Source: Escherichia coli
Lineage (GTDB): Bacteria > Pseudomonadota > Gammaproteobacteria > Enterobacterales > Enterobacteriaceae
Reading direction: 5' to 3' (one strand)
NCBI RefSeq assembly: GCF_044324785.1
Contig: NZ_CP172127.1
DNA length: 64,000 bases
Below are positions 21,924-27,792 of this stretch, piece by piece. A program made the translations under genes and the position numbers. Numbering within the stretch: the first letter of the stretch is position 1; every line of letters starts with the position of its first letter. The notes under the pieces are model-generated. The model was not told the DNA's origin. It did not search any database and worked only from the letters and a program-made list of their open reading frames with translations.

Positions 21924-22682
21924 ATGCATTACCAGCCAAAACAAGATTTACTCAATGATCGCATTATCCTGGTGACGGGAGCCAGTGATGGTATTGGTCG
22001 TGAAGCCGCGATGACGTATGCACGCTATGGTGCGACAGTGATTCTGTTGGGCCGTAATGAAGAAAAATTACGTCAGGTAGCCAGCCACATAAACGAAGAA
22101 ACTGGGCGTCAGCCACAGTGGTTTATTCTCGATTTGCTGACCTGCACGTCCGAAGATTGCCAACAACTGGCACAGCGCATTGCCGTTAATTATCCACGCC
22201 TGGATGGTGTTTTGCATAATGCCGGATTGCTCGGCGATGTTTGCCCAATGAGCGAACAAAATCCGCAGGTCTGGCAGGACGTCATGCAGGTCAACGTTAA
22301 TGCCACCTTTATGCTCACCCAGGCACTGCTTCCTTTATTACTCAAATCGGACGCCGGTTCACTGGTCTTTACTTCATCAAGCGTTGGACGTCAGGGACGA
22401 GCCAACTGGGGCGCATATGCAGCGTCGAAATTTGCCACCGAAGGGATGATGCAGGTACTGGCCGATGAATATCAGCAGCGCCTGCGCGTCAACTGCATTA
22501 ACCCAGGCGGTACGCGCACCGCAATGCGTGCCAGCGCCTTTCCGACCGAAGATCCACAGAAACTTAAAACCCCCGCTGATATCATGCCGCTCTACCTCTG
22601 GCTGATGGGCGATGACAGCCGCCGTAAGACCGGCATGACCTTTGACGCCCAACCGGGCCGTAAACCAGGAATTTCCCAATGA
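21924..22682 (+). CDS. yciK: short-chain dehydrogenase/reductase YciK
   Basis: 252-aa ORF with Rossmann motif VTGASDGIGRE and YAASK catalytic motif. Confidence 0.9.
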   Translation: MHYQPKQDLLNDRIILVTGASDGIGREAAMTYARYGATVILLGRNEEKLRQVASHINEETGRQPQWFILDLLTCTSEDCQQLAQRIAVNYPRLDGVLHNAGLLGDVCPMSEQNPQVWQDVMQVNVNATFMLTQALLPLLLKSDAGSLVFTSSSVGRQGRANWGAYAASKFATEGMMQVLADEYQQRLRVNCINPGGTRTAMRASAFPTEDPQKLKTPADIMPLYLWLMGDDSRRKTGMTFDAQPGRKPGISQ

Positions 22683-23269
22683 GTGATGAACGCTACCAAC
22701 AGCGTCAGCAGCGAGTGAAAGAAAAAGTAGATGCTCGTGTGGCCCAGGCCCAGGATGAACGCGGTATTATCATCGTCTTTACCGGCAATGGAAAAGGCAA
22801 AACCACCGCGGCATTTGGTACGGCAACACGCGCAGTTGGTCACGGAAAAAAAGTGGGCGTCGTGCAGTTTATTAAAGGCACCTGGCCTAACGGCGAACGA
22901 AAACTGCTGGAACCACACGGCGTTGAATTTCAGGTGATGGCAACGGGCTTTACCTGGGATACACAAAATCGCGAATCTGATACCGCCGCCTGTCGCGAAG
23001 TCTGGCAACATGCAAAGCGGATGCTTGCCAATCCTTCACTGGATATGGTTTTGCTCGATGAGCTGACGTATATGGTGGCGTATGACTATTTGCCACTGAA
23101 AGAAGTGGTGCAGGCGTTAAATGAACGTCCAAATCAGCAAACTGTCATTATTACAGGTCGGGGCTGTCATCGGGATATTCTTGAACTGGCGGATACGGTG
23201 AGTGAATTGCGCCCCATCAAACATGCGTTTGATGCCGGTGTAAAAGCGCAGATAGGGATTGACTACTAA
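22679..23269 (+). CDS. cobO: cob(I)yrinic acid a,c-diamide adenosyltransferase (CobO/BtuR)
   Basis: 196-aa ORF with P-loop GNGKGKTTAAFG; start overlaps yciK stop by 4 nt. Confidence 0.9.
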   Translation: MSDERYQQRQQRVKEKVDARVAQAQDERGIIIVFTGNGKGKTTAAFGTATRAVGHGKKVGVVQFIKGTWPNGERKLLEPHGVEFQVMATGFTWDTQNRESDTAACREVWQHAKRMLANPSLDMVLLDELTYMVAYDYLPLKEVVQALNERPNQQTVIITGRGCHRDILELADTVSELRPIKHAFDAGVKAQIGIDY

Positions 23270-23272
23270 GTG

Positions 23273-23306
23273 AAAGCACCTCAAAAGAAGCCTCTTGAGG
23301 TGCTTT
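23273..23306. terminator. 12-bp-stem hairpin at the cobO 3' end and left islet boundary
   Basis: aaagcacctcaa-aagaagcctc-ttgaggtgcttt read directly; no clean T-run on either strand, so terminator function is uncertain. Confidence 0.4.
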
Positions 23307-23320
23307 AATCATGATTATAT

Positions 23321-23629
23321 TCAAGCGGCAATAGCGAAATTCAGAATACGTGTAATCTCATTCAAATGTCCCTGATATGCTTCATGATTCTCAGCGTCAA
23401 CATCTTCAATAAATAATATCAGTTCAGTAATTAACGCATTAGCATCGTCATAATTTATCCCGGCTAACTCTGGCGAAGTTTCAGTACCGTAGTTAATCGT
23501 CAGGTTGTTCATAACTGTGAGGATATGGATAAAATATTTATGACAAACATTACATGTGGTTTTATTACCCAAAGTATTATACAGCATATCAAGTAATGCC
23601 AGTATTCTACGGTTTTGCACATCGTTCAT
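23321..23629 (-). CDS. hypothetical 102-aa protein, islet gene 2 (no signal peptide, CNVCH motif, acidic C-terminal half)
   Basis: ORF preceded by strong SD aggagg about 7 nt upstream of ATG; starts 10 nt after the stop of the upstream lipoprotein gene. Confidence 0.55.
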   Translation of the reverse strand: MNDVQNRRILALLDMLYNTLGNKTTCNVCHKYFIHILTVMNNLTINYGTETSPELAGINYDDANALITELILFIEDVDAENHEAYQGHLNEITRILNFAIAA

Positions 23630-23639
23630 AAAAAGCCTC

Positions 23640-24641
23640 CTATAACATTATTCCGCTGGCAATAAGTAATTTTGCCAGCCCCTCAGACGCCTTTAACCCA
23701 CTAATGACCTGTGCGCGTAATATTTCATTTAATCTTTTTTGTTCAGCTGCCGTGCGTGTTTTATTAACGTATAAGCTTTTCAGATAATCACCCTTATCTA
23801 TAAAGGCATTTAAAGCCTCAATCGCAGGCATGGCAGGTGCCGATGCCTGTAGTCTGGTTTCATTCACATTGATTACTGAACTTAGAAACTCCTTCCTGTT
23901 TTTCAGAGTGTTAAACTCTGTATTCTTAGAGTTTTTAGATGCCGTATTATAATAAAACATATTATCATGCACATTCGCAAAGGTATAATTTTCAATCTTA
24001 TTGCTTTTTGTATAAATATCATTGCGCAAAACTGCCATGTTCTTTATAAGTCTTACCCAGTTTTCATCTACCGTTTTGCCTATTTTTCCAGAATTGACTT
24101 TAATTATATATAACTCATTGAAATAATTTACCAAATCTTTAACCGCTGCTGCAGATTGAGCTAAATCTTTGCTATGTGAAACACCAAGTAGTGTTTGTGC
24201 GTTGTTTGCGTGATCCAGAGCCTGTTTAAGTAATGCCACTTGCTGACTTTCCGTAGTTGCCATATCCTTTGTCAGAAGTTCCACATAAGCGCTCATGCTA
24301 TTAATGACTTCCATTGAAGCCAGTAATTTTTCTTTCTCGAAAGGGACTAATTGTACTTGTTTTGTATTTGGCCCTGAACGCTGGCATAATTTTCCGCCAT
24401 TCCCATCACCGCCTATATCAATGGTATAATCAGGTCGCAGGGCACAATCCGGATTAGTCGCGTAGAAATTAACAAGGAAGTTTTCACGAGAAGCATAGTA
24501 TTGTTTAAAGAAACTTGCATTCGCCGCTACTGCTTTGTTACCCGCAGTAATAACAGTTTCAGCTTGTTCGTTTTTCAATGCTTCAGTTGCACAACCTGAA
24601 AGCATTAACAGCGATAGAAATATTCCACTATATCTAATCAT
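23640..24641 (-). CDS. hypothetical 333-aa lipoprotein, islet gene 1 (signal peptide + lipobox LSGC, Ala at +2)
   Basis: 1-kb ORF in roughly 30% GC DNA; MIRYSGIFLSLLMLSGCATE...; SD aagagg upstream; Asn/Lys/Ser-rich mature region. Confidence 0.65.
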   Translation of the reverse strand: MIRYSGIFLSLLMLSGCATEALKNEQAETVITAGNKAVAANASFFKQYYASRENFLVNFYATNPDCALRPDYTIDIGGDGNGGKLCQRSGPNTKQVQLVPFEKEKLLASMEVINSMSAYVELLTKDMATTESQQVALLKQALDHANNAQTLLGVSHSKDLAQSAAAVKDLVNYFNELYIIKVNSGKIGKTVDENWVRLIKNMAVLRNDIYTKSNKIENYTFANVHDNMFYYNTASKNSKNTEFNTLKNRKEFLSSVINVNETRLQASAPAMPAIEALNAFIDKGDYLKSLYVNKTRTAAEQKRLNEILRAQVISGLKASEGLAKLLIASGIML

Positions 24642-24766
24642 AACCCACCTCTTGACGTTGAGTTTATCTCAGATAATTAAATAGTAATGTGGCTATTTCC
24701 GGGTATTATTCATAAGCAAGTATGAAATTAAATTAAAATACTGCGACTATTTATCATGCTTCAAAT

Positions 24767-24791
24767 GAAGAAAAGGCCCCGCAGGGCCTTT
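24767..24791 (-). terminator. rho-independent terminator of rluB
   Basis: On the minus strand, stem aaggccc-tgcg-gggcctt followed by ttttcttc. Confidence 0.7.
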
Positions 24792-24810
24792 ATTTTATAC
24801 TTATCTTAAA

Positions 24811-25686
24811 TTAACCGTTATTATTACGTCCACCAGAACGGCGACCACCGCTCACCTGGCTATGACGTTTCACCGCACGACGAATCTGATTTGCTTTCAT
24901 GCGACGACGATCTTTTTCTACAGCAACTTTAGAGCTGGTTTCTGGTGGCAGTTCCACCAGTTCACGCAGATAGTTAGTCTGGGCGAGGTCCAGCTCCGTC
25001 CAGCCGCCGCGTGGCAGACCTTTCGGCAGTGGGATATCACCGTAACGAACACGAATCAGGCGGCTTACCTGCACACCAACCGCTTCCCACAGACGACGAA
25101 CTTCACGGTTACGGCCTTCGGTCAGAGTCACGTTGTACCACTGGTTGATCCCTTCGCCGCCGCTGAACTTAATGGTTTTAAAGGCTGCCGGACCATCTTC
25201 AAGCTGCACGCCACTACTCAAATCACGCAGTTTCGCGTCGTCAACCTGACCAAATACACGCACGGCATATTCACGTTCAACTTCACGGCTTGGATGCATT
25301 AAACGGTTTGCCAGTTCACCGTCGGTGGTGAAGAGCAACAGACCACAGGTGTTAACGTCCAGACGACCTACGGCAATCCAGCGTGCGCCACGCAGCTTTG
25401 GCAGACGGTCAAACACCGTTGGACGCCCTTCCGGATCGTTACGGGTACACAACTCACCTTCCGGTTTGTAATAGGCCAGAACGCGACAAATTTGTTCAGC
25501 GGACTCACGTACCGAAATCAGGTGACCATCGATACGGATTTTCAATCCAGGGGTAATTTCAACACGATCGCCGAGTTTAGCAATTTTGCCATCAACACTC
25601 ACACGACCGGCTTCAATAATAGATTCGATTTCACGGCGAGAACCGTGGCCGGCACGCGCCAGCACTTTCTGTAGCTTTTCGCTCAT
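24811..25686 (-). CDS. rluB: 23S rRNA pseudouridine synthase RluB
   Basis: 291-aa ORF with S4 domain N-terminus, RsuA/RluB-type core and Arg/Gly-rich C-terminal tail. Confidence 0.93.
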
Positions 25687-25896: not shown

Positions 25897-27792
25897 TTAC
25901 CAACCACCACCGCCTCCGCCACCCGCACCGCCGCCAGCACCACCACCGGAATAGCTTCGCCCCAACAAACTGGTATAGGCCCCGCAACTCAGGTGCGTCT
26001 GCAATGAGAATAAAACGCCACTACGGGCAATTTCCGGGGCGCTAACAGCCGCTGTGAGTGATGGGGTGATACGTTCTGCCCATTCTCTGCCAAGGTTTGC
26101 CGAGACCGCCCAACCTAACAATGCGTAATCCAGTTTCCGTGTTTCCCCTTTCCGCCGCCGCCCACTGTGTGTTGCCGCCTCTTTACGCGCAAGATAGTTA
26201 ACGATAGCTTCGCCGTGGGCATAACGTTGCTGCCCAGTTTGGGTAAACTTTGGCAGAAAAATATACCCAATGCCAGTGAGATAACCGGTCAGGAAAACAG
26301 AGCTAAAATAACCCGCTGGCATATACCAGTAAAAGAATACATCTCCGACATTGATATAGAGAGAATAGAAGGCCACGCCTGAACAAATCAGTGGTAAAAA
26401 CAAAGTGATGATTACACGATTAACGCAAGGCTTGTCATCATCGCGGGCAAACAAAAGCTCAAGGGAACAAAATAAGAAAGGAAGAAGCCAGCAGATCATA
26501 ATAAACATATCGCCTACCAGACTCATTCCTGCCCAGCCTACGGGACTCAGGTTACCGTAGAGAATGACCGCCAATATTGCCATTCCGCCCCATTGCAAAA
26601 ACGCATCAGGTCGGTAAAACGAAGACTTTTTACGCGGCAGATAAAATTTCTGCATCCGTAAAAATGCACTGCGTAAGACTCTGTTGCGTCTCCCCGTAAG
26701 AACGACCTTATCGCCTTTACGAAATAACGCTTCCAGTAATAACTGCTCTGCGGGCAGTAATACCGCATTATTTCTGGTCGCGCCTTCATTAACACGAATC
26801 AGGATTTGCTGGTTCTTGTCATACTGATCTTTCAGATGAATTTTGCCTTTCACAATCAGATTTACGATATCGGCACAAAAACCTTTATCGTCGTAAACCA
26901 GTTTCGCATCGAGACGTAACATGCCGGGCGTGTAATCTGGCGGAATGACATCGGTTTCAATCACATCTACCGGCGTAAATTGTGGCCTGCGCTTCCAGAG
27001 ATATAACCATCCACACGCCAGGAACAGACACGGAAACCAAATTAACAACGATGACGTAGAGGGTAAAAGAAGATGGCTGAAAATATTCGTCGTTTGTGGT
27101 GCCGAGGCATTACCAAGTAAAGCGTGAGGCCAGCGGTAGAGGACCGTGAAGTCTTCACGATAAAACGGATCGCGGGATTCAATTCTTCCGTCCTCAAGGA
27201 TGCGGCCATTTCGATATGTGTCGCCCTCTTCTCCAGTAAAGAGATCAATTTCGCTAAATGGATTACCCGCAATATCAGGCAACTGGAGAGAAAATCGGGT
27301 CTTATAGATTTCAAACGGCCACTTGTTACCGGTCACGTTCCAGATTAACAGATCTGAATCTCCCTCACGCAGGAAAGCATTTTTAACCTGATAATGAATT
27401 TGATAATGATAGTCGCCTTGAGGCAAGAAACGTTGTTTATCGCCCACGACAATACTCATTAACCCGATATGCCAGTCAAGATGCCAGGGTTCAGGAATAC
27501 CATCACGGGTGACGCCAACAATATGATAGTTCAGCAGTGCAGCGTCCCCATTAGGCTGCATCCATAGTCGTGGTAAATCACGATAAAATCCGTGCTTAAT
27601 CTGCTGATTTCGCGCCTGAAAATGAATGTTCTCTTTGATGTCGAGCACCCCATCCAGTTGCAGGGTGGCTTCAACATCAAAGAGCGAGATCCCTTCTTCA
27701 TAAAAAGGGATCTCCGTGTTTTTCGGATAACTCAACGAAGAGAAAAAAAGCCCAACTATCAACAGCAAAATGCAGCGATATATCCCTGCCAT
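25897..27792 (-). CDS. yciQ: YciQ, large inner-membrane protein (DUF2207-like), Gly-rich C-terminus
   Basis: 631-aa ORF; synteny between rluB and yciO. Confidence 0.85.
   Translation of the reverse strand: MAGIYRCILLLIVGLFFSSLSYPKNTEIPFYEEGISLFDVEATLQLDGVLDIKENIHFQARNQQIKHGFYRDLPRLWMQPNGDAALLNYHIVGVTRDGIPEPWHLDWHIGLMSIVVGDKQRFLPQGDYHYQIHYQVKNAFLREGDSDLLIWNVTGNKWPFEIYKTRFSLQLPDIAGNPFSEIDLFTGEEGDTYRNGRILEDGRIESRDPFYREDFTVLYRWPHALLGNASAPQTTNIFSHLLLPSTSSLLIWFPCLFLACGWLYLWKRRPQFTPVDVIETDVIPPDYTPGMLRLDAKLVYDDKGFCADIVNLIVKGKIHLKDQYDKNQQILIRVNEGATRNNAVLLPAEQLLLEALFRKGDKVVLTGRRNRVLRSAFLRMQKFYLPRKKSSFYRPDAFLQWGGMAILAVILYGNLSPVGWAGMSLVGDMFIMICWLLPFLFCSLELLFARDDDKPCVNRVIITLFLPLICSGVAFYSLYINVGDVFFYWYMPAGYFSSVFLTGYLTGIGYIFLPKFTQTGQQRYAHGEAIVNYLARKEAATHSGRRRKGETRKLDYALLGWAVSANLGREWAERITPSLTAAVSAPEIARSGVLFSLQTHLSCGAYTSLLGRSYSGGGAGGGAGGGGGGGW

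Follow-up and report, generated by a model that had tools for sequence, protein, structure and literature searches.

Here we describe a two-gene islet of Escherichia coli that encodes a predicted lipoprotein and a small partner protein, and that lies in a 64,000-nucleotide stretch of DNA (assembly GCF_044324785.1, contig NZ_CP172127.1), hereafter called the window. The gene order in the window is topA, yciN, sohB, yciK, cobO/btuR, islet, rluB, yciQ, yciO, rnm and trpE. The islet is a two-gene operon between the convergent core genes rluB and cobO/btuR, in which the lipoprotein gene stands first (open reading frame (ORF) 24641..23640 on the minus strand, 333 codons, ATG to TAG), while the partner ORF (102 codons, 23629..23321, minus strand) begins 10 nucleotides (nt) 3' of it. 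Both genes are labelled hypothetical protein in RefSeq, the lipoprotein being WP_054250544.1. The islet has a G+C content of 39% as compared to about 50-53% in the flanks, and is 99.9% identical to that of strain N3, the nearest complete genome. The features of the islet, in the order of its transcription, are as follows; dN/dS denotes the ratio of nonsynonymous to synonymous substitution rates.

24772..24791, minus strand: rluB terminator, a G+C-rich hairpin and T run directly after rluB, which forms the upstream cassette boundary (terminator scan and inverted repeat I6)
24709..24726, minus strand: palindrome TTCATA-CTTGCT-TATGAA, candidate element of an operator or promoter, its centre about 76 nt ahead of the start codon (upstream alignment)
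24646..24653, minus strand: Shine-Dalgarno sequence of the lipoprotein gene, purine-rich AAGAGGTG, ending 4 nt before the ATG (read from the sequence)
23640..24641, minus strand: lipoprotein gene, 333 codons and TAG (ORF, dN/dS about 0.2)
24591..24641, minus strand: signal peptide (residues 1-16) and lipobox Cys17, codon 24593..24591 (LSGC lipobox, Cys aligned in 39/39)
24342..24446, minus strand: Cys66 to residue 100, the least conserved segment, with Cys66 at 24446..24444 and Cys86 at 24386..24384 (alignment and AlphaFold2)
24422..24393, minus strand: Gly-rich hairpin tip DIGGDGNGGK, residues 74-83 (read from the sequence)
23636..23641, minus strand: Shine-Dalgarno sequence AGGAGG of the partner gene, overlapping the lipoprotein stop codon (read from the sequence)
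23321..23629, minus strand: partner gene, 102 amino acids (aa) (ORF, dN/dS 0.19)
23273..23306, no strand assigned: hairpin with a 15-bp stem between the partner gene and the convergent cobO/btuR, which forms the downstream cassette boundary (inverted repeat I3, 93% complementary, 4-nt loop)

Since the AGGAGG sequence of the partner gene overlaps the stop codon of the lipoprotein gene, translational coupling between the two is plausible. The hairpin at 23273..23306 is likely a bidirectional terminator, as judged from its position and stem. No Rfam family was found in the region 22500-25500, and no promoter was called on the minus strand by a simple sigma-70 scan.

The N-terminus of the lipoprotein (MIRYSGIFLSLLMLSG-C17-ATEA) carries one Arg in the n-region, followed by a hydrophobic core, the lipobox LSGC and Ala at position +2. 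The lipobox was checked by rule, using the strict pattern [LVI][ASTVI][GAS]-C. This pattern was present in 35 of the 39 aligned family members and the remaining four had near-lipoboxes, the Cys falling in the same column in all 39, down to about 15% identity. Conservation of the lipobox across the 39 relatives is therefore strong evidence that the family consists of lipoproteins. An earlier interpretation made from the window alone, referred to here as the sequence-only reading, had proposed an L-S-G-C lipobox behind a signal peptide of the signal peptidase II (SPase II) type, and this proposal stands. Under the Lol sorting rule of E. coli, Asp at +2 is the signal for retention in the inner membrane. 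Asp was found at +2 in none of the 39 relatives, so that sorting to the outer membrane, which the sequence-only reading had predicted from the Ala at +2, holds as a prediction. The top Kyte-Doolittle windows of 19 residues were those of the signal peptide (1.35) and a C-terminal helix (1.12); no window was at the usual transmembrane level and no transmembrane segment was found besides the signal peptide, in agreement with what had been noted before. Asn (9.3%) and Lys (8.1%) are about two-fold more frequent than on average in E. coli, while Ser (7.2%) is only marginally raised; thus the description of the protein as Asn/Lys/Ser-rich was borne out for Asn and Lys, and only marginally for Ser. 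The Gly-rich loop DIGGDGNGGK pointed out earlier is indeed present, at the tip of the least conserved segment, but other alleles are not Gly-rich at this place.

Homologues of the lipoprotein were sought at two depths. A word-indexed protein search returned relatives only from Escherichia, including Escherichia albertii, and Citrobacter, down to 51% identity, and an identical protein is recorded for 463 contigs. A profile of the enteric relatives searched against 1.84 billion representative proteins gave 56 matches, of which about 30 were full-length (324-357 aa) with 15-25% identity. These distant lipoprotein relatives are spread over many Proteobacteria of widely differing G+C content; three of them, found by a locus search of an alphaproteobacterial subgroup, could be placed in named genomes, all Sphingomonas. 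In the alignment of 39 sequences only Cys17, Cys66, Cys86 and Tyr119 are invariant. Searches of Pfam, NCBIfam, PADLOC, PHROGs and PDB sequences with both E. coli proteins and with the distant relatives revealed nothing above matches at the level of the signal peptide, such as that to Lpp/OprI (12 bits against a cutoff of 43). The sequence-only reading could place the protein in no known family, and these searches bear it out; nor was a confident match to a known core lipoprotein family obtained. By the measure of these databases, the lipoprotein is confirmed to belong to a new protein family absent from the named ones. The two-gene arrangement is also new, within the familiar category of accessory envelope lipoproteins.

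The structure of the lipoprotein was predicted with AlphaFold2 from 39 sequences, with a mean predicted local distance difference test score (pLDDT) of 73 and a predicted template modelling score (pTM) of 0.68; an earlier model, built on 13 close sequences, scored poorly (pLDDT 54) and was replaced by this one. The model consists of a long N-terminal helix that includes the signal peptide, a hairpin and seven further helices, and the mature lipoprotein is thus predicted to be an all-helical bundle with a hairpin. The predicted hairpin strands comprise residues 73-77 and 93-97, with pLDDT 74-86 for the block. Cys66 ends the first helix region of the model and Cys86 lies in the hairpin loop, and a Cys66-Cys86 disulfide probably pins the hairpin. 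The least conserved segment was always residues 67-100, which contain the hairpin, and the most conserved was residues 18-66. Residues 67-100 are 62-71% identical where the remainder of the protein is 84-100% identical, and 27-34% identical where the remainder is 34-100% identical.

We compared the model with known structures, as the sequence-only reading had suggested along with a profile search. With Foldseek, the nearest folds outside the family were those of DUF3829 proteins (TM score 0.69, E 1e-9), and the fold may be shared with DUF3829/YiiG. At the level of profiles there was no homology: membership in DUF3829/YiiG (PF12889) was rejected when hhalign against an alignment of 25 YiiG sequences gave 6% probability, and hhalign against YiiG alone led to the same rejection. 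PF12889 was detected by Pfam in 0 of 39 family members, and the invariant motifs of YiiG are absent. Because the confidence of the model is only moderate (pLDDT 73), the fold match to YiiG is a lead and not a proof. Like YiiG and other DUF3829 proteins, the islet protein is a lipoprotein of about 330-350 aa found in Enterobacteria and predicted to be all-helical, and YiiG is itself uncharacterised; unlike the islet lipoprotein gene, yiiG of E. coli K-12 is not followed by a partner gene on its strand.

The sequence-only reading overlooked that the lipoprotein gene is one half of a conserved two-gene operon. A gene on the same strand follows 1-25 nt 3' of the lipoprotein gene in every locus examined. 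The downstream gene encodes 96-107 aa in E. coli (three allele classes), E. albertii, Citrobacter, one further enteric and seven distant metagenomic or genomic loci, and 253-275 aa in four loci of the alphaproteobacterial type, three of them in the named Sphingomonas genomes (L012 2171-2980, L028 7003-7830, L029 3387-4154 and L030 6296-7057). The Sphingomonas-type partner has an N-terminal soluble part, a Pro-rich linker and a C-terminal part of 3-4 hydrophobic helices with a conserved YYxxLxxLFPxEA motif, and matches no Pfam or NCBIfam family. The partner encoded in the window is an acidic protein of 102 aa (net charge -8) without signal peptide or membrane segment, and the small partners in general lack a signal peptide. 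All enteric partners carry a C-x-x-C-H motif in the form CNVCH, CKVCH, CDICH or CDKCH (C26-N-V-C29-H30 in the window), which is the sequence pattern of haem c attachment; the enteric partner has this haem c-like pattern and yet no signal peptide. The prophage-borne partner described below has C-x4-C instead, and most distant partners keep one Cys only.

The small partner proteins evolve fast. A profile of the enteric partners recognised only the prophage copy (26.6 bits), and homology of the enteric partner to the other distant partners was undetectable. Position and size of the partner are conserved, yet common ancestry of all the partners is unproven because most of them show no detectable similarity. 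The genes flanking the pair were entirely different from locus to locus when distant loci were compared; therefore the pair behaves as a self-contained unit. We infer that both genes act jointly.

Comparison of complete E. coli genomes revealed that the islet is an accessory element. In K-12 the rluB-btuR spacer is an empty site of 39 bp with a single, different hairpin. The junction was empty in 4182 of 5426 complete genomes (77%) and filled in 1237, about a quarter. The ORF was intact in the complete genomes that were listed or inspected, with a few exceptions due to IS1. Copies of IS1 were inserted in the islet, or replaced part of it, in NZ_OZ546911.1, NZ_CP029420.1 and NZ_CM192149.1, so that loss of the pair is evidently tolerated. 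In strain GPEC1042 (NZ_CM142795.1) one islet gene is labelled 'amino acid kinase family protein', unlike in the other genomes listed, which is probably an annotation oddity. Filled sites carry one of three allele classes, which are distinguished by the middle portion of the lipoprotein gene:

window type: this window and strain N3, lipoprotein of 333 aa, 424 genomes
ST131 (sequence type 131) type: strain EC958, lipoprotein of 340 aa, 776 genomes
third type: GPEC403-625, lipoprotein of 340 aa, 34-36 genomes

Over the promoter region and the first ~72 codons, the DNA of the classes is 95-97% identical, and in the central region synonymous sites are saturated between classes (proportion of synonymous differences, pS, 0.66-0.75). 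The third class is a mosaic with a unique centre, whereas its 3' end and partner gene are near the window type. The dN/dS between alleles was about 0.2 for the lipoprotein gene and 0.19 for the partner gene; therefore both genes are functional, and these ratios indicate that both are under purifying selection. Within the window-type class, four genomes differed by few changes and had no excess of amino-acid change in the hairpin, and we thus regard hairpin diversity as old variation between classes. Between genomes of different islet classes, the synonymous divergence (dS) of the neighbouring genes was 0.11-0.13 for rluB (24811-25686) and 0.24-0.40 for cobO/btuR (22679-23269). The value for cobO seems high for an E. 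coli core gene and may stem from old variation in linkage or from flanks that were imported. In E. albertii, Citrobacter and one further enteric, the pair is likewise found between rluB and cobO. Either it was ancestral at this site, with loss in most E. coli, or it has been exchanged between genomes by recombination in the conserved flanks.

Upstream of the start codon, a block common to Citrobacter and the three allele classes of E. coli has retained ATTTCATACTTGCT(T/C)ATGAA despite the saturation of synonymous sites in the genes. Within this block, TTCATA-N6-TATGAA at 24726..24709 forms a perfect 6-bp inverted repeat, which makes the palindrome a candidate operator for some regulator. Its assignment as an EvgA box was dropped because it has more than 3 mismatches to the EvgA-box consensus, which does match the emrK-evgA site.

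Outside the enteric chromosomal site, the nearest relative is P0052, a lipoprotein of 357 aa with 23% identity that is accompanied by a partner of 96 aa. The P0052 pair belongs to a prophage whose DNA is 73% identical to P2-like phages, and is flanked there by a gpS-like tail-completion gene and the gene for baseplate V. The S-V site is one of the three sites at which P2-like phages carry morons (PMC6823313). Among the other distant pairs, one (L013/L014 8001-9393) lies amid VapBC, Fic, Y1 transposase, MazG_C and QSregVF_b genes, in surroundings that look like a mobile or defence island by their gene content, and another follows a DDE transposase. At the former, a gene for a membrane protein of 413 aa ends 40 nt upstream on the same strand. 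Three matches to 'plasmids' in PLSDB (CP054249.1, CP054253.1 and NZ_CP134663.1) were rejected as chromosomal fragments or mislabelled chromosomes: one record measures 4.9 Mb, and the trp operon is present on a 'plasmid' of 33 kb. The match in CP054249.1 is at 33% identity and may reflect sequence errors in the assembly.

Taken together, we are highly confident that the lipoprotein is encoded by the first gene of a self-contained two-gene operon, and that it is exported, lipidated at Cys17, passed to the outer membrane as predicted, and folded into a helical bundle with a hairpin. The protein would be exported by Sec, would receive its lipid at Cys17 through the Lgt/LspA/Lnt pathway and, having Ala at +2, would be transferred by Lol to the outer membrane. 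The product of the second gene, of about 100 aa and fast-evolving, would stay in the cytoplasm in enterics, while that of the Sphingomonas relatives would have 3-4 membrane helices.

As to what the pair does, we rank first, as a guess with a probability of roughly 0.3, that it is an accessory module for envelope protection or exclusion. The functions put forward by the sequence-only reading, namely phage receptor masking or exclusion, immunity or sensing, are likewise guesses. The variable face of the lipoprotein, especially the hairpin, would bind a fast-evolving partner from outside, for which a phage tail or receptor-binding protein, a phage receptor or an incoming toxin that acts in the periplasm are candidates, and the binding would block entry as with Cor, Llp, TraT and Ltp. 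The small protein would serve production or control of the lipoprotein without contact with the invader. The rluB-cobO site of the Escherichia-Citrobacter group would long have held the pair, which most E. coli would since have lost and the others would preserve in three ancient allele classes. Envelope exclusion was ranked first because the operon is built like a moron, one relative is found in a prophage, the old allele classes centre on a hairpin that looks exposed, and exclusion lipoproteins such as TraT set a precedent; presence/absence polymorphism, the terminators of its own and the low G+C content were also counted in favour of protection. We consider it rather doubtful that the pair is the first known representative of an envelope system with two components, widespread in Proteobacteria, which excludes phages or other invaders at the cell surface, with the allele classes setting specificity and with occasional carriage as prophage cargo.

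Cor (phi80 and N15), Llp (T5), TraT (F) and Ltp (TP-J34) are exclusion lipoproteins, typically encoded by morons with their own expression signals, and are single genes of roughly 60-250 aa. Like them, the islet lipoprotein has an SPase II signal peptide and a predicted envelope location and is accessory and not core, and a P2-like prophage carries one of its relatives at the S-V moron site. By masking OmpA, the outer-membrane lipoprotein TraT offers a precedent for a block to phage (PMC10002423). P0052 and its 96-aa partner further resemble the ORF30-type morons of P2-like phages, in that they lie at exactly the same S-V site of a Peduovirus-like prophage, whereas the E. coli pair is flanked by two core genes and has no phage genes in its vicinity. 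A relationship to P2 ORF30 itself is unlikely, since tblastn against phage genomes including Peduovirus gave no match.

Several results weigh against exclusion as the function of the pair. In contrast to the known exclusion lipoproteins, that of the islet is 333 aa long and always comes with a second gene, and the role of the cytoplasmic partner is left unexplained by the exclusion model. Again unlike Cor, Llp, TraT and Ltp, to which it has no sequence or fold similarity, the family is almost never found in phages or plasmids: prophage carriage is a single example, and no relatives were detected by tblastn in 50,697 phage genomes, by pattern scans of IMG/VR contigs, or by a fold search of BFVD and comparison with PHROG families. 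The defence models of PADLOC-DB v2 gave no match for the E. coli pair and only chance-level matches for ten distant relatives, and no description of the lipoprotein family was found in the literature. Many family members lie among ordinary housekeeping or metabolic genes. Across genera, the enteric copies keep to a single chromosomal site and thus do not look recently mobile. Finally, positive selection on the hairpin was not seen within the window-type class (A), where the ratio of nonsynonymous to synonymous proportions of differences (pN/pS) was at most 0.13 in four genomes.

The protein might instead be a dispensable envelope lipoprotein of a housekeeping type, that is, a periplasm-facing helical scaffold or ligand binder of the YiiG/DUF3829 structural class, a possibility to which we give about the same weight as to protection. 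The pair would then be ancestral at rluB-cobO, and its divergence would reflect age, recombination with sister species and weak constraint on a loop and not an arms race. The DUF3829 folds are the nearest outside the family, the site is the same in E. coli, E. albertii, Citrobacter and the further enteric, dN/dS is about 0.1-0.2 with no positive selection within the class, distant members stand among metabolic genes, and phages and plasmids almost lack the family. Such a role fits less well with the 6% profile comparison and the missing YiiG motifs, with the absence of a same-strand downstream partner from YiiG, with the low G+C content and own terminators of a pair that 77% of E. coli genomes do without, with three classes at saturated synonymous divergence within one species, or with the copy carried as prophage cargo. 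That the islet holds no functional gene, being a chance ORF or decaying remnant in an AT-rich spacer, hardly deserves consideration: the annotation is hypothetical only and no promoter was predicted for this strand by the simple scan, but dN/dS is about 0.2, the ribosome-binding site is strong, the ORF is intact in the complete genomes listed apart from the few with IS1, and full-length relatives with invariant cysteines reach down to 15% identity.

Two further explanations assign the pair a part in conflicts with toxins. The genes could be an orphan immunity pair, the lipoprotein acting against a periplasm-acting toxin (a lipase or amidase of a type VI secretion system (T6SS), or a colicin-like toxin) and the small protein against a cytoplasmic toxin domain. 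The predicted location in the periplasm or outer membrane, the multi-allelic presence/absence structure of the population, and a partner that is small, fast-evolving and acidic like many immunity proteins are consistent with this. We nevertheless regard it as unlikely, as no toxin, T6SS, contact-dependent inhibition (CDI), bacteriocin or secretion-system gene was found next to the pair in any locus examined, no Pfam immunity family was matched, and the strict pairing across distant bacteria argues for genes that act together, not for two separate immunities. Alternatively, the lipoprotein could be a membrane-damaging effector that the small partner restrains, in the manner of toxin-antitoxin or abortive-infection pairs. 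A two-gene operon with a small acidic second gene would suit such a pair, as would the locus amid VapBC and Fic genes. It is nonetheless quite improbable: in enterics the predictions place the two products in separate compartments, the order with the large gene first and the sizes are atypical, no toxin, antitoxin or Abi domains were detected with PADLOC or Pfam, and some genomes tolerate IS1 within the islet.

The 776 ST131-type genomes, which include EC958 of the ST131 pandemic, and about 460 others express or can express a lipoprotein that is named in no database. Were the pair indeed to control entry of phages, colicins or contact-dependent toxins, it would affect host range in phage therapy and strain competition in the gut, and would add a two-gene type based on a lipoprotein to the known mechanisms of exclusion. 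Even as a plain structural lipoprotein it would bring a new family signature, namely a lipobox, a variable hairpin flanked by two invariant cysteines, and a downstream partner gene that is obligatory. The pair is common in clinically important E. coli, and nothing so far points to an unusual mechanism. Beyond the islet, yciQ (DUF2207) is annotated as frameshifted in strain N3 (L001 6628-8522), while an intact ORF of 631 codons is present in the window (25897-27792).

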